Shown here in pieces: positions 6,979-47,986 of a stretch of DNA of 64,000 nt (the stretch's first letter is position 1; the number at the start of each line of letters is the position of its first letter). The notes beneath the pieces were generated by a model. It was not told where the DNA came from, searched no databases, and was given only the letters and a program-made list of their open reading frames with translations. This stretch comes from Enterococcus phage vB_OCPT_CCS1: sequence record ON113170.1, one strand, 5' to 3'. The position numbers and the translations under genes are program-made.

Positions 6979-8223
6979 CTATTTAGCCTTAAAATTGTAA
7001 ACAGGCTTAACAATCTTTTGAATATCTACTGTATCTTTGATGATTTCTTTGATTTCGTCAGCATTCTTGTAGGCTTTTGGTGCTTCATCTAGTGTACTTT
7101 GAACAACAGATGTTGTATAGATACCAGACATTGTTTGTTTAAATTCGTCTAAATCGAGCAGTTCTTTTGCTTTAGAACGAGACAATACACGTCCTGCTCC
7201 ATGGGGTGCAGAATTATTCCAATCAGTGTTTCCTTTTCCTACACCGATGATAGAGCCCTCTTTCATATTTAAAGGGATAACGAGTCTAACACCTTCCTGT
7301 GCATCTGTGGCACCTTTACGAATAGTGTTGGAATCTACATCAATATAATTATGAATAGAATCAAATAAGTCAACTACAGTCCAACCCATGTTAGAAACAA
7401 TCTTATCAATGATAGTTTTACGATTCATGTAAGCATAACGTTGTGCTAGTTGCATATCGTTTAAATAATCATCCACTGCGGAACCTTCTAAGTATGGCAA
7501 TTGTGGTTTAACATTGACAGCTTTAAAATTCTTAATAGCCTCTTGAATTTCTGACTGTCTGCCTTCTTGCTTAAGTGTCTCAATCATAGTTGCTAAACCT
7601 TTGTCATCACGTTCATGGTATAAATCCGCTTTCTTCTGGTGATATTGGGCTACTTTAAGTCCTAAAGAGCGGGAACCTGTGTGAACTAACAAGTAGTAAT
7701 TGTTTTCGTCATCTTTACTTAATTCGATAAAATGGTTTCCACCACCTAAAGTACCTAAAGACAAGGTAACACGTTCAATAAATGGTTCTTCTGTTGCACC
7801 TTTAAACGTCATAGATTCTAACATGTGCTTAATCGTATTCGGTACATTAGGATGAAGTTCGTCCAAATTTTCTCTAATGTTAAACCCAGAAGGAACCACT
7901 TTGTTAATCACTGCATCCAATTTAGCCCATTCGGTATCTGTCGTGTCTTCTGGCTTTTCAATTTGAGCTACCATAATACCACAACCTACATCTACGCCAA
8001 CAATAGAGGGTACAACTCGATTAATACCGTCTGGATAATGAATCGTTGTACCAACTGTGGAACCTTTACCATAATGTGCATCTGGCATAATTCTAACAAT
8101 GCCACCTTCTGTTACTGGTTCATTAATCATTGTTGTAACCTGACCGATAGTGCCTTCATCCACCGTGTTAATAAACATTTTCGCATCGGTATACTTACCG
8201 TTAAGTTCAATTAAGTTATTCAT
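6979..8223 (-). CDS. rtcB: RtcB-family RNA 3'-phosphate/5'-OH ligase
   Basis: 414 aa; TLGGGNHFIELS matches the conserved RtcB GGNHF metal-binding motif; length and the HYGKG/HTGSRSLG segments are consistent with RtcB. Confidence 0.85.
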   Translation of the reverse strand: MNNLIELNGKYTDAKMFINTVDEGTIGQVTTMINEPVTEGGIVRIMPDAHYGKGSTVGTTIHYPDGINRVVPSIVGVDVGCGIMVAQIEKPEDTTDTEWAKLDAVINKVVPSGFNIRENLDELHPNVPNTIKHMLESMTFKGATEEPFIERVTLSLGTLGGGNHFIELSKDDENNYYLLVHTGSRSLGLKVAQYHQKKADLYHERDDKGLATMIETLKQEGRQSEIQEAIKNFKAVNVKPQLPYLEGSAVDDYLNDMQLAQRYAYMNRKTIIDKIVSNMGWTVVDLFDSIHNYIDVDSNTIRKGATDAQEGVRLVIPLNMKEGSIIGVGKGNTDWNNSAPHGAGRVLSRSKAKELLDLDEFKQTMSGIYTTSVVQSTLDEAPKAYKNADEIKEIIKDTVDIQKIVKPVYNFKAK

Positions 8224-36012: not shown

Positions 36013-36243
36013 TCAGTTTTTGTCATCAGGTTCTAATAGCTTGTCCGCAGGCATATCAAAAATCCGAGCTAATTTAGCTTGATTATTTGCTCTGGGTTTT
36101 TTGATTCCATGCTCCCAATAGGATACAGTTGACCAGTGTACACCTAGTTTTTTAGCTACAGAACGCAAGGATTCATGCTTTTCTTCACGAACACGTTTCA
36201 GCACCAAGGGTTTTGGCTTGCTTTCCACGATTCTCCCCTCCAT
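36013..36243 (-). CDS. XRE-family HTH regulator
   Basis: LRSVAKKLGVHWSTVSYWEHG helix-turn-helix. Confidence 0.65.
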   Translation of the reverse strand: MEGRIVESKPKPLVLKRVREEKHESLRSVAKKLGVHWSTVSYWEHGIKKPRANNQAKLARIFDMPADKLLEPDDKN

Positions 36244-36286: not shown

Positions 36287-37822
36287 TTATTTAAGTGCTT
36301 CTTTTACAAAGTCGTATTCTGGTTTATTTAACACAGACAACATCATTTCTTCTGGGGAAGTAACTTCTCCACCTAGTACTTGCGATAAAATATTTGTGGA
36401 GAATCCAGAAACTAACGCAACATTATCTTCGTTAAACCGTACTGGTAGATTATCATGACGAGATTGTACATTCCAGAAAATAATAGCAGGTAACTCGTAG
36501 CCATGATTTGCAAACTCCTGTTTTGCTTGCTCAAAGTTTGTTCTTTGTCCTCGTTCACAAGCAGTATTAAATTCCATATCACTGATAATAATAATCTTGG
36601 ATGGTAGTTCTTCTTGCGGTGTGTTATGCTTAACCGCAGTATCAAGAATCAATCGGAACACTGCTTGAATATTAGTAGAATAGCCAACTCTTGCACGGTT
36701 ATATACTCTCATACGGTCATACACAGTATCCTGTGGATTCAAATATACTAAACTAGGTTCTGATGCAAATGTAATGAAGTGATTAGCGAAAGTACCGTTT
36801 AATTTTTCAGCCGTGTATAATGCCAAACCTTGCGCAACATCCCAAGGGTAAACCCCGTTCGTTTCTGTCCAAGTCATTGAACTAGAAGAATCAGCAACTA
36901 CAATTGCGTTATCTTCCACATCCTTAATAACATCATCTAAAGACTGCCAAGTAGCTTCTAAAGAACGATTTACACCCTGACCTGCACGTGCTTTACGGTA
37001 TGCTCCTGTAATCTCGTGAGGTAATACCAAACTTGCATTAAGCTTTCCTTCACCCGACTCCACCTTTTCCATAAGCGCTTCATATTCATCTGGCATGTGT
37101 AATTGCAAAGCTTTACGGTATTTGAATAATGCTTTAGAGGATACTTGGTTCAAATCAATCTTATGGTATTCCTTGCTTGCTAACCGAACTTCAATTACAT
37201 TTAAGTAATCACGTAATTTAGCAATCATTTTACGATAACGAGTTAGACCTGCTTTGCCTTCAAAACCTAAATAGTTAGCAATACGAGCACCTTGATTACG
37301 TTTCTTACTATTTGGAGAACTTACATTAGCTAACCATTTACCTAGTAATGAAACAGGTTTACCCTCTGACATATTTTTAATATCTGATGTTAGTTGGTTC
37401 CCGATGATACGTGCACCTTCTGTATCCACAAAGTGGATACTACGTTTGTGTGCGTATTCCATAGTTTCAAATAAGTCTGTCCAACGACCAACATATGCCA
37501 TGTACTCCATTAAAGTAACGATTACTTGCTTGTTTTGGTTACGACCATCCACTAAGTATTTGATTGCTTCTAGGTAAGCGGAACGTTCACCCAATCCACC
37601 TAAACGGATATTACGTAAGTGTACCAAATTGCGTAATGCTAACTCTGGGTTTTCAGCATAAGCTTTAGAAAACATGTTTCGTACATCTTCTAAACGACCA
37701 CGCATAGCCCCTGCTTGTGCAAAGAAGTCTAAGTTAGCGTTTAAAGTTGATGTGTAAGTTTTAGCTCCATTTTCTGTATGTCCAACAGTTGTTTCTTCTT
37801 TTAGGTTGTCTAAAAATGACAT
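36287..37822 (-). CDS. rsr: Ro60/Rsr-like protein: helical TROVE-like N-terminal region + C-terminal vWA domain (also consistent with phage DUF2828-type annotation)
   Basis: 511 aa; ~310-aa helical N-terminal part; C-terminal vWA with MIDAS VVADSSSSMTW (DxSxS) and downstream IIISDMEF; architecture and size match Ro60; promoter 37864-37892 and RBS AAAGGAGAGATG. Confidence 0.55.
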   Translation of the reverse strand: MSFLDNLKEETTVGHTENGAKTYTSTLNANLDFFAQAGAMRGRLEDVRNMFSKAYAENPELALRNLVHLRNIRLGGLGERSAYLEAIKYLVDGRNQNKQVIVTLMEYMAYVGRWTDLFETMEYAHKRSIHFVDTEGARIIGNQLTSDIKNMSEGKPVSLLGKWLANVSSPNSKKRNQGARIANYLGFEGKAGLTRYRKMIAKLRDYLNVIEVRLASKEYHKIDLNQVSSKALFKYRKALQLHMPDEYEALMEKVESGEGKLNASLVLPHEITGAYRKARAGQGVNRSLEATWQSLDDVIKDVEDNAIVVADSSSSMTWTETNGVYPWDVAQGLALYTAEKLNGTFANHFITFASEPSLVYLNPQDTVYDRMRVYNRARVGYSTNIQAVFRLILDTAVKHNTPQEELPSKIIIISDMEFNTACERGQRTNFEQAKQEFANHGYELPAIIFWNVQSRHDNLPVRFNEDNVALVSGFSTNILSQVLGGEVTSPEEMMLSVLNKPEYDFVKEALK

Positions 37823-37863
37823 CTGACATCTCTCCTTTGTATGATAGTATTTTATCTAACACC

Positions 37864-37892
37864 ACTATAACATGTAATATTATGTAAGTCAA
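37864..37892 (-). promoter_or_regulatory. sigma-A-type promoter of the Ro60-like gene (gtgTTGACTT-N17-TATAGT family)
   Basis: minus strand TTGACT at 37887-37892, TATAGT at 37864-37869, 17-nt spacer. Confidence 0.55.
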
Positions 37893-38060
37893 CGCCTTTT
37901 ATAAATAAAAAACCCATCCATTTAAGAATGAGTTTTTTCATCTTAACCAGTAGTTAAGCGGGGGGGGCGCAACACCTTTTATTTAACTTGTCATTATAAT
38001 ATCAAGAACCACAGGCTTAATAATTAGATTTGAAAGGTTTAGTCTATTAGTAGTTGATTG

Positions 38061-38140
38061 CTGTAGGGTTCTTTATGCTCTGGCAACCTAGTAGGTTAGA
38101 GCTATGGCAAATTGCCAAAACCTTTTTATTATGTACAAGA
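38061..38140. repeat. structured ~80-nt repeat, copy 1 (two hairpins supported by compensatory changes)
   Basis: GCTCT-[AACCT-agt-AGGTT]-AGAGC then TGGCA-aat-TGCCA then AAAACCTTTTTAT. Confidence 0.5.
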
Positions 38141-38156
38141 ATCTATTTTATACGTT

Positions 38157-38213
38157 GCTCTAACCAAACTGAGCTACGGGAGGATGATTCCTCCCGGCAG
38201 GACTCGAACCTGC
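38157..38213 (-). ncRNA. tRNA-mimic module 1 (T arm + closed acceptor hairpin + D arm; no anticodon arm): YrlA-like Y-RNA candidate
   Basis: on the minus strand: GCAGG-TTCGAGT-CCTGC (T arm), CGGGAGG-aatcat-CCTCCCG (7-bp hairpin where acceptor strands would pair), TA, GCTCAGTTTGGTTAGAGC (canonical D arm). Confidence 0.5.
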
Positions 38214-38244
38214 GACCCACGGCTCCATAGGCAATAAAAATCGC

Positions 38245-38325
38245 TGTTAGATTCTTTATGTTCCGGCACCCATTAAGGATGGAACTATAGCTATGCTAAA
38301 ACCGTTTTATTTATGTAACAAGAAC
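38245..38325. repeat. structured ~80-nt repeat, copy 2
   Basis: GTTCC-[CCAT-taagg-ATGG]-GGAAC then TAGC-tat-GCTA then AAAACCGTTTTAT; stems covary with copies 1 and 3. Confidence 0.5.
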
Positions 38326-38338
38326 GCATTAACTTTAA

Positions 38339-38390
38339 GCTTTACCAATTAAGCTATACCACCAATGGTGGCAGTTGGATTCGAACCAAC
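38339..38390 (-). ncRNA. tRNA-mimic module 2 (same permuted architecture)
   Basis: GTTGG-TTCGAAT-CCAAC (T arm), TGCCACC-att-GGTGGTA (hairpin), TA, GCTTAATTGGTAAAGC (D arm). Confidence 0.5.
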
Positions 38391-38427
38391 AACTCACATT
38401 TTTCAGATGTATTAGTTTTAAAAATTT

Positions 38428-38510
38428 GCTGTGGCGTTCTTTATGTTCCGGCTACCTGTTAGGTTGGAACTATGACATATGTCAAAACCTTTTTATCTTG
38501 TCTTTATAAT
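38428..38510. repeat. structured ~80-nt repeat, copy 3
   Basis: GTTCC-[ACCT-gtt-AGGT]-GGAAC then TGACA-ta-TGTCA then AAAACCTTTTTAT. Confidence 0.5.
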
Positions 38511-38558
38511 AGCATAAGCTATTTAAACTGTCAAGTATTAATTTAAATATATTGAAAC

Positions 38559-38783
38559 TTATTTAAAAGCTCCAATATATTTAACAGTACCTTTGCATTT
38601 ACGTGCAAAAGCTTCTAGCTCTTTACGAGCACCTAAACGGTCTGGTTGAGAAGACTGTACTGTAACTTCTTTTGGCACAGTAATTTCACGAGTTTTCTTA
38701 ACTGTCTTTCCGTTTTTTAACTTTTGTTCATACTCTTCTGTACGAGTAGAAGTTGTTGAAATAATTCCATAAAATTTAGACAT
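38559..38783 (-). CDS. hypothetical basic protein
   Basis: ORF track 74 aa; RBS CCGGAGGT. Confidence 0.45.
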   Translation of the reverse strand: MSKFYGIISTTSTRTEEYEQKLKNGKTVKKTREITVPKEVTVQSSQPDRLGARKELEAFARKCKGTVKYIGAFK

Positions 38784-38814
38784 GTTATGTGACCTCCGGT
38801 CATTTTATTTTAAT

Positions 38815-38895
38815 GGGGAGTGATGGAGTTGCACCACCCGAGCTTTCGCAACTGATTTACAGTCAGCCCCGCTACTACTTACGGTATAACTCCCC
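38815..38895 (-). tRNA. atypical type-II tRNA-like (anticodon GUA, Tyr?) with noncanonical T loop
   Basis: acceptor GGGGAGT/ACTCCCC 7 bp; anticodon hairpin GCTGA-CTGTAAA-TCAGT; extra arm; T loop reads TGCAACT rather than TTCRANY. Confidence 0.35.
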
Positions 38896-39091
38896 GTATA
38901 AGTATGTATATATCAATACAATGTACAAGAACTTTTAGTGAGGTAGCTCTCATAGTGTATTAATGGGGTACATTGTGTAACTTCAACTAGTATTGCCTCA
39001 CACGTGACTAGTCTTATATACACAATGCCTACATACAACCCGATAGACCACCCTTGGTACGCATATTAAGAGGCGCAGGGTGGTACGAATA

Positions 39092-39162
39092 TATGGATTG
39101 CAGGATTTGAACCCGCACCTTTTTGACGGAAGCCAAAAATACTACCCTTATATTAAATCCAC
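39092..39162 (-). tRNA. tRNA-Gly(UCC)
   Basis: T arm GCGGG-TTCAAAT-CCTGC; acceptor 6/7 + G-U; anticodon loop CTTCCGT; AT-rich D arm. Confidence 0.5.
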
Positions 39163-39282
39163 ATAGTGTTAATAGGCGGGTACCCGACAGCGAAGTATCA
39201 TTCCTGTCTTGTCATTCTCCTATTAACTCCATAATACCTTGCCTAGAGTTGAGCTAGGTCTCACATTTATCGAAGGTACTAA

Positions 39283-39355
39283 TCGGGAAAGCAGGACTTG
39301 AACCTGCGACCCCACGCTCCCAAAGCGTGTGCGCTACCAACTGCGCTATTTCCCG
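39283..39355 (-). tRNA. tRNA-Pro(UGG)
   Basis: acceptor CGGGAAA/TTTCCCG exact; D arm GCGCAGTTGGTAGCGC; anticodon stem CACGC/GCGTG with loop TTTGGGA; T arm GCAGG-TTCAAGT-CCTGC. Confidence 0.8.
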
Positions 39356-39432
39356 TTAACTTATACATACATTATAACACAAACTTACATGCTGTAAACA
39401 ACTATTTGTAAGTTTTTTTAATTTATCCATTC

Positions 39433-39510
39433 GGGACAGTGTGCTTTAACCATTCAGCCACCCGCAGGGGCAACCCGCAGGACGGGAATCGAACCCGTAT
39501 AACACTGTCC
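39433..39510 (-). ncRNA. tRNA-mimic module 3, closed by a 9-bp stem at the anticodon-stem position: YrlA-like Y-RNA candidate
   Basis: GGACAGTGT-tat-ACGGG-TTCGATT-CCCGT (T arm)-CCTGCGGG-ttgcc-CCTGCGGG (8-bp self-complementary hairpin with two G-U)-tg-GCTGAATGGTTAAAGC (D arm)-ACACTGTCC; the terminal 9-bp stem GGACAGTGT/ACACTGTCC encloses the whole unit. Confidence 0.55.
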
Positions 39511-39675
39511 TATTGGATAGGCTTGTGTACCTGTCATCTTCCGATTACACACACCTAGTCTAGTTACCGTACCAATAGATTTGACAGGAATCTAGGGTAA
39601 CGCCCAATATGGTGTTAATTCACCTCGTATTCTGTTACAGGTTTGCAACCCTGAACAAGGATGACCAATCCTAAT

Positions 39676-39743
39676 GATATGCGAGGGGATTTGAACCCCT
39701 ATCTACTTCATAGGTCACTTTATCCACTTAAGCTACGCATACC
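39676..39743 (-). tRNA. irregular tRNA-like element (short; possible pseudogene)
   Basis: canonical T arm AGGGG-TTCAAAT-CCCCT and 7-bp acceptor (one G-U); only ~16 nt between D arm and T arm, so no standard anticodon arm fits. Confidence 0.3.
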
Positions 39744-41388: not shown

Positions 41389-42132
41389 GTTACCTCCTTA
41401 TTATGTATAACCCATGAAGCATCATGGGGGGACTGTAGTATGCCCAACCTGCGGGGATGCTCCGCTCTGAATCCGTAGAAATCAGCCACAATTCGATATT
41501 TATTTAATGAAAAAATTAGATAGGATTCGACTGCTTGACAAAGGCAGTCTATGGAGTAGACGGGACTCGAACCCGTGTCCTAACGTAGAACCATACAAAA
41601 TTCTACGGGCGTAGTTACTAGTTTTAATCTACGTTAAGGTTACAACTAATAACTGAAATTACCTTAACTGAGTGGTAAAGCCTCTCCTGAGTTATCCACT
41701 TTTACCTCAGCGTTGTCGGTTGATGAGTCCTCTAGGTAGAACCGACCCTAGTCTAGAGGGGTAAGTGTGTAGCTAGTCTAAAACTAGGCTACAGCTAATA
41801 ATTCTTCGTTTTTAGCAGTTATATTTACTGCGATGATTAAGTCATCACTCTGCCCGCTATTCATATACTCCTTACGCCAGTCGAAACCAAAACTACCCCA
41901 ACATAAGAATTTCTTTTGACTAACCCTACCCTTCCGGCAGGGTCTAATCAAAAGTATACAATTAAAAAAATGAAAATGAGTTACGGAAAATGTAACGTCT
42001 CCACCACCGGACTATAAGGGTAAGTTGTTCCGGTCTTTAACCTAAGTACTTTACTTAAATCTAACAGGACAGCCTTCATTACGTAAACTACTTAACCATG
42101 TAAAACGTAAAGGTCAATTTCCGTTGACCTAA

Positions 42133-46732: not shown

Positions 46733-47986
46733 AATGTTTCCCCAACCACCGCCACCTAGGGGATTCGTACGTCTACGTGAGTTTTTTGGTTATAGTTCCT
46801 TGTTTAAGACAAGGAAGTACGAGTGGACTACCAATTTACCACTCTGCGGTTCTGATTGCGGTAGGTGGGATATGTAAGATAAAAAGACCACTCTTAGAAT
46901 GATTTAATCTGTAAAAAACACATCGCATAAACGAGATGCAGTTATAGCTCTATCAAGCAACCTACACCGATTCCGTCGATTACTACCGACATCGCCTTGC
47001 TCGTGTACTTTGAGCGCCCATTTCCAACCCTCGGTTGCTAATGTTTCTCTCCTAACCTACACCTGAGAGTGGCACACGTCTGTGCTAGTATTTTATGCCT
47101 ATTAACTGATTCGCAGGCACACTGCTTAATTCAGCCAACCAATCGGCATCCGATAAGATTGATTGTTTCCGTAGGTTCTTTAAGTCACTGGAGTGGTACT
47201 GCCCCACTCACGCCTATTAAAGTGTTAACTTAATAGATAAAAACTACTCATAACAGGTTTACTACCATAGCATTCTCTACTTCCGCCACAGTGACATGTT
47301 TAAAAACTCAAAACTTAATAGATTAAGGGCTTTTCTTCCTGCTTCATATACACTCACTGCATTCGGTCACATACTCAGAGAGGCTGAACCATCGGGAGCT
47401 ACCCGATAGCTTCTCTCTGCCTTTAATGTATGGTCTAGCACGGTGGCTAACAACGTTCACCTAAACATTCAGCTATTAAAAGTATTAATTAACATATATC
47501 CTTATGTCTTCTATAATATTTTCATCAAAAGCTGACTTAGGCTACTTGTACCAAGGTCTCTTGTTAAACCTGTATTTCTACAGTTCTCGTCAAAGGGAGT
47601 CTTTTGAGTTTTCCAAGGTCTGCCAAGCTTCTCACACTTCCACCTAACTTGGATTCTTTTCCACAGGAACGTCTATTGTATCCCCCAAGAGTCTTGTACC
47701 TTACAATCCATGTATACTCCACATAACGCTTAACTGATATTAGCTTTTACTAATAGTTACTCCTATGTTACCATAAGACCTACCTGCAACCCAAAGCACT
47801 ATCGCACCTTCGGTTACATTCAGATTCACGCCACGCTATCCTAGCAAGCTGTTCAAACTTTCTGCACTAGGTTCAAAATCTATTAAGTTTTCAATTTTTA
47901 ACCACTAACTTGTGGTGTAATACTAATATAGCATAACATTACAAAGTTGTAAACACCTTTTTGTAAGTTTTTTTGATTTTTTTTTG

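Follow-up and report, generated by a model that had tools for sequence, protein, structure and literature searches.

The DNA analysed here, called the window in the following, is a stretch of 64,000 nucleotides (nt) from Enterococcus phage vB_OCPT_CCS1 (sequence record ON113170.1). On its minus strand it encodes a protein of 511 amino acids (aa) with the predicted fold of Ro60. Just upstream of this gene lie three small RNAs, RNA-0, RNA-1 and RNA-2, which share a closing helix followed by the motif ACAGC(A/G)A. We refer to this element as the handle. RNA-1 and RNA-2 enclose a permuted tRNA-like core that resembles YrlA RNA, and a further YrlA-like RNA, unit 3, is found farther upstream. Ro60 and Y RNAs are conserved from bacteria to humans, and the role of the particle is unclear outside a few model species. 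The initial annotation of the window had proposed a Ro60/Y-RNA module at this locus. This interpretation turned out to be essentially right, as structure prediction points to a Ro60 fold, the units are YrlA-like and their helices covary. The coordinates of all features are collected in Table 1.

Table 1. Features of the window around the Ro60-like gene and elsewhere in the 64,000 nt, with the basis of each assignment.
Feature	Position	Strand	Basis
rtcB, RtcB RNA ligase gene	6979-8223	minus	Pfam RtcB, E 2e-59
Small XRE-type helix-turn-helix (HTH) gene beside the DUF2828 gene	36013-36243	minus	
Ro60-like protein gene (511 aa), helical ring domain (DUF2828) and vWA/MIDAS domain (DUF7788)	36287-37822	minus	
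Sigma-70-like promoter before protein gene, TTGACT-17-TATAGT	37864-37892	minus	10/12 + TG; consensus match only
Terminator-like hairpin with U-run	37903-37938	minus	read from sequence; hairpin of L002 ortholog cleaner
RNA-0, handle-only RNA	38003-38073	minus	R2 covariance model; RNAfold closing helix
Hairpin pair H1/H2 before RNA-0	38077-38116	minus	
RNA-1 (unit 1 of the initial annotation)	38136-38256	minus	YrlA; R1; RNAfold; covariation in alignment A6
RNA-1, D arm	38157-38174	minus	
RNA-1, closed acceptor-like hairpin	38177-38196	minus	
RNA-1, T arm	38197-38213	minus	
Hairpin pair H1/H2 before RNA-1	38260-38298	minus	
RNA-2 (unit 2 of the initial annotation)	38319-38441	minus	YrlA; R1; RNAfold; covariation with L003 and others
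RNA-2, D arm	38339-38354	minus	
RNA-2, acceptor-like hairpin	38357-38373	minus	
RNA-2, T arm	38374-38390	minus	
Hairpin pair H1/H2 before RNA-2	38445-38483	minus	
Sigma-70-like promoter, TTGACA-17-TATTAT	38506-38534	minus	consensus scan 11/12 + TG; consensus match only
tRNA-Tyr-like element	38816-38893	minus	Rfam tRNA 27.7 bits (cutoff 29)
Unit 3, YrlA-like RNA of classical shape	39424-39520	minus	YrlA 30.1 bits, E 5.5e-4
Unit 3, GUCCCGAAUGG of the 3' strand	39424-39442	minus	
Short (67-nt) tRNA-like gene	39676-39742	minus	Rfam tRNA 41.7 bits, sensitive scan
Transfer-messenger RNA (tmRNA), phage-encoded	41549-41899	minus	142.7 bits; tag AKNEELLAVA
ROOL RNA, full-length	47309-47895	minus	RF03087, 267.8 bits

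The open reading frame (ORF) of the initial annotation is present, and the architecture read from it, a helical N-terminal region followed by a vWA domain containing a MIDAS motif (metal ion-dependent adhesion site), is borne out. In Pfam, the N-terminal part matches DUF2828 (95.1 bits, cutoff 29) and the C-terminal part matches the vWA-like DUF7788 (154.7 bits, cutoff 27.1), both above the curated cutoffs. The protein also matches PHROG 850 (E 6e-139), a family that PHROGs names "RNA-binding protein". Its MIDAS motif (DxSxS...T...D) is complete, and D311, S313, S315, T383 and D415 are invariant across 61 homologs. The AlphaFold2 model has a predicted local distance difference test score (pLDDT) of 93.5. 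Searched with this model, Foldseek returns Ro60/TROVE as all of its top eight matches, full-length and with template modelling (TM) scores up to 0.64, so that the structure prediction suggested earlier gave Ro60 as best match. Among the PDB sequences, Ro60 was found neither with the single sequence nor with the 61-member profile. We conclude that the protein is predicted to have the Ro60 architecture, a helical ring and a vWA domain, but forms a separate sequence family, DUF2828/DUF7788. This family is large, with 4796 matches in the protein collection. By tblastn, relatives of the window protein occur in 694 isolated phage records, which include Felix O1, Listeria and Staphylococcus phage relatives and mycobacteriophages.

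In RNA-0, RNA-1 and RNA-2, the closing helix has the form AAGAAnnn/nnnUUCUUG with ACAGC(A/G)A directly 3' of its 5' strand, and RNAfold closes all three RNAs by their handle helices. RNA-2 runs from AAGAACGC-C-ACAGCAA through unit 2 to GCGUUCUU-G and is closed by the helix AAGAACGC/GCGUUCUU(G). RNA-1 runs from AAGAAUCU-A-ACAGCGA through unit 1 to AGAUUCUU-G; its helix is AAGAAUCU/AGAUUCUU(G), and its motif is the ACAGCGA variant. RNA-0 was overlooked in the initial annotation. It consists of AAGAACC-CU-ACAGCAA, a loop of ~46 nt and GGUUCUU-G and has no tRNA-like part. In the 64 kb it is the sole significant match (35.5 bits, E 9e-6) of the covariance model R2, which represents 48 simple units from distant phages and bacteria, one seed being the RNA-0 ortholog of the related contig L002. 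R2 does not capture RNA-1 or RNA-2 because their inserts of 96-98 nt exceed the tolerance of a simple-unit model. The handle occurs three times in the 64 kb, always just upstream of the 511-aa gene and never in the neighbouring array of 21 tRNAs. A loose scan for any 7-bp helix around ACAGCNA, with G-U pairs allowed, remained at chance level (14 matches vs 5-11 in shuffled sequence), and within the window specificity is limited to the three AAGAA.../...UUCUUG copies.

Each of the three RNAs is preceded by a hairpin pair, H1/H2, with a conserved AUAG linker and a GCC bulge. These hairpins show compensatory changes between copies and between phages. Beyond the three copies of the window, more are present in L002 and L003, and they were seen only in Enterococcus-phage relatives. 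They may be a processing site or a part of the RNA. In L003, a relative at 66% protein identity, five units stand in tandem; their helices all differ and all are compensated. Upstream of RNA-2, a promoter-like site would drive RNA-2, RNA-1 and RNA-0 as a single transcript, and a terminator-like hairpin would close this small-RNA transcription unit. The scan tool did not call this terminator because its loop has 10 nt. The hairpin and a second promoter-like site stand between the RNA cluster and the protein gene.

The tRNA-like cores were located with a descriptor that requires, in this order, a T stem without mismatches and with a TTCRANN loop, a hairpin of 6 bp or more and a D arm. In its strict form it finds exactly three sites in 64 kb, and these are the three tRNA-mimic units of the initial annotation. 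Descriptor and core model R1 place the cores at 38157-38213, 38339-38390 and 39443-39498. A control over 80 loci gave 19 real matches vs 1 in shuffled sequence. R1 scores RNA-1 with 55.7 bits and RNA-2 with 61.7 bits. The Rfam YrlA model (RF02553) aligns over its full length in a sensitive scan of 37.7-39.7 kb, at 38126-38241 (47.1 bits), 38312-38419 (34.3 bits) and 39420-39520 (30.1 bits). The E-values in this 2-kb search are significant at all three units (7e-9, 3.5e-5 and 5.5e-4 for units 1, 2 and 3). The adjacent 9-kb array of 21 tRNAs gave no YrlA match at E<=1; the unit matches are therefore not a by-product of tandem tRNAs.

Descriptor, R1, folds and the covariation of 17 RNAs agree on a T arm followed by an acceptor-like hairpin and a D arm, all within a stem that the 5' and 3' ends form. 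The YrlA-type architecture proposed earlier thus stands in the order of its elements; units 1 and 2 are closed by the handle helix with ACAGCAA and not by the canonical stem. The acceptor strands are joined by loops of 3-5 nt and the anticodon stem has at most 3 bp, in line with the closed acceptor hairpin and missing anticodon arm that had been described. ARAGORN calls none of the units, and the Rfam tRNA model yields 20.4 and 16.1 bits (cutoff 29). All units lie on the minus strand 0.2-1.7 kb upstream of the gene, within the 4-kb same-strand distance of an earlier survey (PMC4201824), for a gene that is Ro60-like by fold only. They had been placed "immediately upstream", which holds for RNA-1 and RNA-2 but not for unit 3, which is 1.6 kb off beyond a 74-aa ORF, tRNA-Gly and tRNA-Pro. 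Two approaches were given up: the three window units by themselves gave a MAFFT alignment of insufficient quality for modelling, and R1 as a counting model returned 599 matches, mostly tRNA-tRNA junctions in arrays. Among its top 150 matches, 67 overlap two ARAGORN tRNAs, and further ones are junctions of tRNAs missed by ARAGORN.

Unit 3 differs in its closure. It has a long two-part stem, UAUCCA..GGACAGUGU / ACACUGUCC-CGAA-UGGAUA, with a T arm, a closed hairpin and a 3-bp D arm; the AAGAA/ACAGCAA handle is absent, which places it outside the handle family. The fold has -42 kcal/mol with a z-score of -3.99. In L003 the stem is fully compensated, with GGAAACG/CGUUUCC in the place of GGACAGUGU/ACACUGUCC. 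Unit 3 carries CCCGAAUG, but on the 3' strand. We take GUCCCGAAUGG in this strand to resemble the Ro60-contacted GGUCCGAAGG of vertebrate Y RNAs. It also resembles the CGAA bulge stressed for the Yrl RNAs of Thermus phage phiLo, again on the 3' and not the 5' strand, and L003 has CGUA here.

ACAGCAA was noticed first as a repeat in the window and then at a distant locus. To define the handle across phages, we used 80 viral contigs (L002-L081) encoding relatives of the protein at 33-80% identity. The motif has the consensus (A/U)AAGAC(R)C-NN-ACAGCAA(U), with few G residues in the stretch that follows. As members of the handle family we count units near a DUF2828 gene and on its strand that have a helix 5'-(A)AGAnnn / nnnUCUU-3', then G, with ACAGCAA 1-2 nt past the 5' strand. 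RNA-0, RNA-2 and, with its variant motif, RNA-1 belong to it. ACAGCAA occurs 375 times on the gene strand of the viral loci and 42 times on the opposite strand, with ~53 expected. The copies concentrate around the gene: the 500 nt upstream contain 126 of them, the following 500 nt another 61 and the region just downstream 33, compared to ~5 per bin elsewhere. A handle is present in 72 of 80 viral loci in the region from 1.5 kb upstream to 1.2 kb downstream of the gene, and 48 loci have at least three copies. The 7 nt before the NN spacer find a perfect complement 35-50 nt downstream in 97 of 245 cases vs 5 of 245 after shuffling. In a less biased test anchored on only the five conserved bases, two more pairs form in 116 of 162 partners vs ~23 expected. 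The first extra pair varies (G-C 47, A-U 38, C-G 19, U-A 8), and G follows the helix in 96 of 114 cases. The handle is an RNA helix, and ACAGCAA occupies the 5' edge of the loop inside it. This handle is the one feature conserved beside DUF2828 genes across very distant phages and bacteria. No Rfam family corresponds to it in the window or in 12 loci scanned.

Two cultured phages extend this distribution. In Mycobacterium phage Whirlwind, gp55 ("Ro-like RNA binding protein") is a DUF2828+DUF7788 protein without TROVE match and is 34.5% identical to the window protein over 98% of the query. Three AC-ACAGCAA handle units follow gp55 (L288 3940-4310): one simple, one around a YrlA-like module (38.3 bits) and one with an anticodon-arm mimic of loop CUGCUAA. 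Shigella phage Sf13 (Ounavirinae; L289 4200-5050) has four handle units in a tRNA array after its DUF2828 gene. The search was also reversed, starting from the exact 17-nt block in IMG/VR, which gave at least 120 loci, with ~200 chance matches expected by our estimate in the whole collection. Among the matches listed, 15 of 120 motif-selected loci have a DUF2828 gene within the fetched stretch.

The content of the handle is variable. Under strict criteria, a permuted tRNA-like core is enclosed in 23 of 415 handle units, from 15 phage and bacterial loci. For 17 such RNAs, unconstrained MAFFT alignment with RNAalifold recovered the handle helix, the T arm, the acceptor-like hairpin and the D arm. 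The permuted-elbow alignment shows double compensatory changes in 18 of 21 pairs. In alignment A6, 92.5% of cells are paired, vs 68% after shuffling and at most 46% when slid, and the observed covariation was reached in 0 of 500 shuffles. Many simple units imitate a different part of a tRNA. Out of 218 unique ones, 161 contain a hairpin with 4 bp or more and a 7-nt loop (mean 96 after shuffling), and in 79 this loop is anticodon-like, Y-U-NNN-R-N (shuffled mean 11.8, maximum 18). The last loop position is A in 55 of these 79, and the "anticodons" are varied (UUU 10, UGA 9, also GUC, GUU, GCU and others). Finally, 74 unique tRNA-shaped genes from 36 viral loci carry a 30-70-nt insert with the handle in the anticodon loop. 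These genes are 110-130 nt long, some with encoded CCA (e.g. L004 4575-4927, L066 1750-1995, L010 6586-6991); the insert is a hairpin plus ACAGCAA, and ARAGORN reads them as intron-containing tRNAs. Genuine introns are disfavoured, with mostly unnatural implied anticodons and scattered insert positions, and we therefore see in these genes tRNA bodies in which the handle takes the place of the anticodon loop. With three kinds of module or none inside it, the handle is thus a constant module, whose partners are interchangeable tRNA parts (elbow, anticodon arm or whole body) or nothing recognisable.

In bacteria, the same family is linked to rtcB. The bacterial sample comprises 80 genome loci (L208-L287) from Clostridia, Treponema, Synergistaceae, Selenomonas, Carnobacterium and others. 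In 41 of them, rtcB is found at most 6 kb from the DUF2828 gene, usually as its immediate downstream neighbour on the same strand, which makes the rtcB link stronger than it had been proposed for the window. ACAGCAA occurs here 291 times on the gene strand vs 95 on the opposite strand. The 500 nt before the gene contain 130 copies, and a handle copy is present within 1.5 kb upstream of the gene in 72 of 80 loci. One contig of the European Nucleotide Archive (ENA) with an S10 ribosomal-protein operon (L205, 5917-9452) has rtcB and the DUF2828 gene separated by an 875-nt gap, which contains three handle units, one of them with a permuted tRNA-like module, and five tRNAs. The bacterial arrangement, with handle RNAs upstream of the DUF2828 gene and rtcB close by, mirrors Salmonella rsr-yrlBA-rtcBA (PMC4201824, PMC7790460). 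By analogy with the bacterial loci, the RtcB of the window is a probable functional partner of the Ro60-like protein.

We interpret the locus as a phage version of the Ro60/Y-RNA ribonucleoprotein, with a protein family that has diverged and small RNAs that form a class of their own, and assign this reading a probability of roughly 0.65. It rests on the fold of the protein, on the linkage in the genome between the protein gene, the handle RNAs and, for bacteria, rtcB, and on the RNA structures and their covariation. Ro60 binds Y RNAs at their conserved 5' strand and helix, and the protein would bind the handle in the same way. The tRNA-like module may tether the particle to tRNA-recognising proteins, or compete for or divert them. 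Together with RtcB, the phage tRNAs and the tmRNA, the particle could serve surveillance, repair or decoying in tRNA damage during infection. It would then keep translation running when the host attacks tRNA, for example with anticodon nucleases. Unit 3 is a possible second ligand of the protein. Our confidence in a specific decoy or repair role is lower than in the Ro60/Y-RNA-like particle itself.

Several observations weigh against this interpretation. The HMM search that had been suggested found DUF2828 and VWA_2, with DUF7788, but no Pfam TROVE (PF05731) at E<=1. When the family profile was aligned by hhalign to human Ro60 (identical to PDB 9nen_A at 538/538 residues), the probability was 10.7% with E 0.003, covering the vWA/MIDAS region only. 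The YrlA model does not reject the units, but all three scores are under the gathering cutoff of 69 bits, and a run at this cutoff reports nothing. The motif GNCGAAN0-1G near the 5' end, the proposed Rsr contact (PMC4201824), is absent, and RNA-0, RNA-1 and RNA-2 have ACAGC(A/G)A instead. In the window rtcB is 28 kb away from the Ro60-like gene, without the adjacency of an operon, and rtcB within 5 kb is found in just one of the 80 viral loci. Selection of the A6 members with a pairing descriptor accounts for part of their high pairedness, but not for the variety of pair types. In several large phages, helix-bearing handle units are scattered over tRNA arrays while the fetched stretch lacks a DUF2828 gene; the handle could therefore act in the processing of tRNA arrays without involvement of the protein.

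This last point is the main support for an alternative, in which the handle units act in cis as spacers or processing elements within phage tRNA arrays, for instance as leader hairpins that direct RNase cleavage or make precursors more stable, and the DUF2828 gene is merely nearby and its product does not bind them. Units indeed often stand between tRNA genes, with a tRNA starting 10-25 nt past the 3' strand or with a tRNA 3' end directly before the unit, and 52 of 80 viral DUF2828 loci contain tRNAs. Moreover, 105 of the 120 motif-selected loci among the matches listed have no DUF2828 in the fetched stretch, and some have 5-7 strand-biased copies. But fetched stretches are short against contigs of 100-190 kb, so the gene may lie elsewhere on them, and ~200 of the motif-only matches in the whole collection are, by our estimate, expected by chance. 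In bacteria, 130 copies accumulate in the 500 nt upstream of DUF2828, with 0-1 tRNA nearby at most loci, and the window handle is missing from the 21-tRNA array and present only beside the gene. We consider array elements unlikely. The proposal that the units are decayed or rearranged tRNA pseudogenes without function, named in the initial annotation as a refutation of its reading, is disfavoured and scarcely credible. The units do sit at the edge of a tRNA array with weak partial matches to the Rfam tRNA model, yet all four helices are kept with compensatory changes in phages at 66% protein identity, in unrelated phages and in bacteria. T arm, closed hairpin and D arm come in a fixed order, conservation extends to the handle, and YrlA matches are absent at real tRNA junctions.

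The handle could also be the recognition signal of a protein-dependent pathway of RNA cutting and joining in bacteria and phages, where the Ro60-like protein holds the handle during cleavage and RtcB religates. On this view, tRNA bodies interrupted by the handle and permuted units closed by it would mature into spliced or circularised RNAs of tRNA type, and bacteria and phages would possess a parallel to archaeal and eukaryal tRNA splicing and to permuted tRNA genes. The 74 tRNA-shaped genes with ACAGCAA-bearing inserts fit this, among them one clean tRNA-Ile(UAU) with the insert at position 37/38. So do the acceptor hairpin loops of the L105 and Whirlwind units, which begin (G)CCA, and RtcB, the ligase of such pathways, linked to the gene in bacteria. 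Yet the anticodons implied by ARAGORN are mostly unnatural (AAA, UUA, AUU, AGG and others) with inserts at positions 30-40, and none of the 80 bacterial loci has an insert-bearing tRNA-shaped gene, though rtcB is adjacent there. RNA-1 and RNA-2 lack an anticodon stem and CCA and have acceptor loops of only 3-4 nt, so they cannot yield tRNAs; no endonuclease is evident. We regard such splicing as improbable. A DNA signal is more improbable still: here the 17-nt block (AAGACnC-nn-ACAGCAA) would be a promoter of a phage polymerase or sigma factor, or an operator, and not part of an RNA. The block is contiguous and strand-specific, is followed by an A/T-rich, G-poor stretch, is dispersed before genes in some large phages and, as we presume, loosely resembles promoters of the SP6/K11 type. 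A T7/SP6-like promoter reading was rejected because the handle's variable bases show covariation with a distant partner that has a G after it and whose spacing varies, at 33-215 nt downstream. In addition, the enclosed sequence folds into tRNA-like or anticodon-arm-like modules, and the block has only three copies in the 64-kb window and occurs in bacteria without phage polymerase.

The surroundings of the locus are rich in tRNA. ARAGORN finds 24 tRNAs and the tmRNA at 39.1-48.4 kb, every one on the minus strand. The initial count of about 27 tRNAs was too high, even though a short tRNA-like gene and a sub-threshold tRNA-Tyr-like element come in addition. The former has a good T arm and an aberrant anticodon region, is labelled "tRNA-OTHER" in phage 113 and is reported neither by ARAGORN nor by the Rfam gathering run. 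The latter has a long variable arm and a non-canonical T loop and is annotated as tRNA-Tyr in phage 113, without ARAGORN call. A ROOL RNA lies within the array, flanked by tRNA-Ser(GCU) and tRNA-Asp. In phage 113, a group I intron endonuclease gene directly adjoins the tmRNA. The XRE-type HTH gene may be a local regulator; such a gene also adjoins the DUF2828 gene in an unrelated phage contig (L202 6283-6573). The rtcB call of the initial annotation was correct (Table 1). The region is 98.8% identical to Enterococcus phage phiSHEF16 and 90-98% to ~30 other Schiekvirus (Herelleviridae) genomes. Related Schiekvirus records label the 511-aa gene "hypothetical", "DUF2828" or "RNA-binding protein" and leave the RNA units unannotated.

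Taken as a phage Ro60/Y-RNA particle, the locus looks like part of a large, undescribed branch of this system linked to tRNA repair. It adds a second, very large protein family of Ro60 shape, accompanied by its own small RNAs, and a widespread RNA family that neither Rfam nor phage annotations contain; in the latter, the regions are blank or "tRNA-OTHER". The predicted protein-RNA interface is concrete and easily mutated. Cultured phages, mycobacteriophages and Ounavirinae, carry handle RNAs, and existing transcriptome data can be mined for them. The idea that follows is that the particle may display tRNA parts to tRNA-damaging or tRNA-repairing enzymes in the conflict between phage and host.

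Among known systems, bacterial Rsr/YrlA (Salmonella, Mycobacterium smegmatis; PMC4201824, PMC7790460) has the same ring-plus-vWA protein, with small RNAs on the same strand within a few kb. In the survey of Chen et al. 2014, 254 bacteria and 22 phages had YrlA-like RNAs close to TROVE-annotated genes, and the association of Rsr, YrlA and RtcB is known (PMC4201824). Also shared are the 5'/3' closing stem with T arm, acceptor-like hairpin and D arm, and the rtcB linkage, here in the bacterial relatives. In contrast to Rsr, the window protein is DUF2828/DUF7788 without TROVE signal by sequence, and its RNAs score under the YrlA cutoff. The 5' motif of the handle family is ACAGCAA beside an AAGAC/GUCUU helix, unlike the GNCGAA(N)G of YrlA. 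Handle relatives also use anticodon-arm mimics and unpermuted tRNA bodies, and phage rtcB is not adjacent. In a 2025 study, Ro60 of Thermus phage phiLo binds two upstream Y-like RNAs, Yrl1 and Yrl2, and host polynucleotide phosphorylase (PNPase) (PMC12135203; PDB 9KOP, 9L5Y). Both loci have two or three small RNAs immediately upstream, and for phiLo a hijack of host RNA metabolism is proposed, which resembles the role considered here. The phiLo Ro60, however, is a recognised TROVE protein, and its Yrl RNAs are described as stem-bulge-stem with a CGAA motif and no tRNA-like domain, unlike the window RNAs, where a CGAA internal loop occurs in unit 3 only, on the 3' strand.

The mycobacteriophage Ro-like system of Whirlwind shares the protein family and the handle. 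Its host and phage family are different, the window belonging to a Herelleviridae phage of Enterococcus; its RNAs lie downstream and not upstream, and they lack the extra 5' hairpins of the Enterococcus units. Permuted and intron-containing tRNA genes of archaea and eukaryotes, as in Cyanidioschyzon merolae, are matured by a splicing endonuclease and RtcB. The handle loci resemble them in the tRNA parts in two circular permutations, the anticodon-loop inserts and the RtcB ligase. They differ in that no bulge-helix-bulge or endonuclease was identified, that the window units have neither anticodon stem nor CCA and that the implied anticodons of the relatives are mostly unnatural. In the open-access literature, we found no paper that ties DUF2828 or DUF7788 to Y RNAs, though an earlier mention elsewhere is possible. 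Equally undescribed in the open-access literature found are the handle, the replacement of GNCGAA, the anticodon-arm and whole-tRNA modules and the bacterial DUF2828-rtcB linkage. With precedent phages, and with mycobacteriophage members of this family long called Ro-like, the kind of system, a phage Ro60 with Y RNAs, is therefore already known. What is new is the protein family in this role, the recognition motif and the repertoire of modules.

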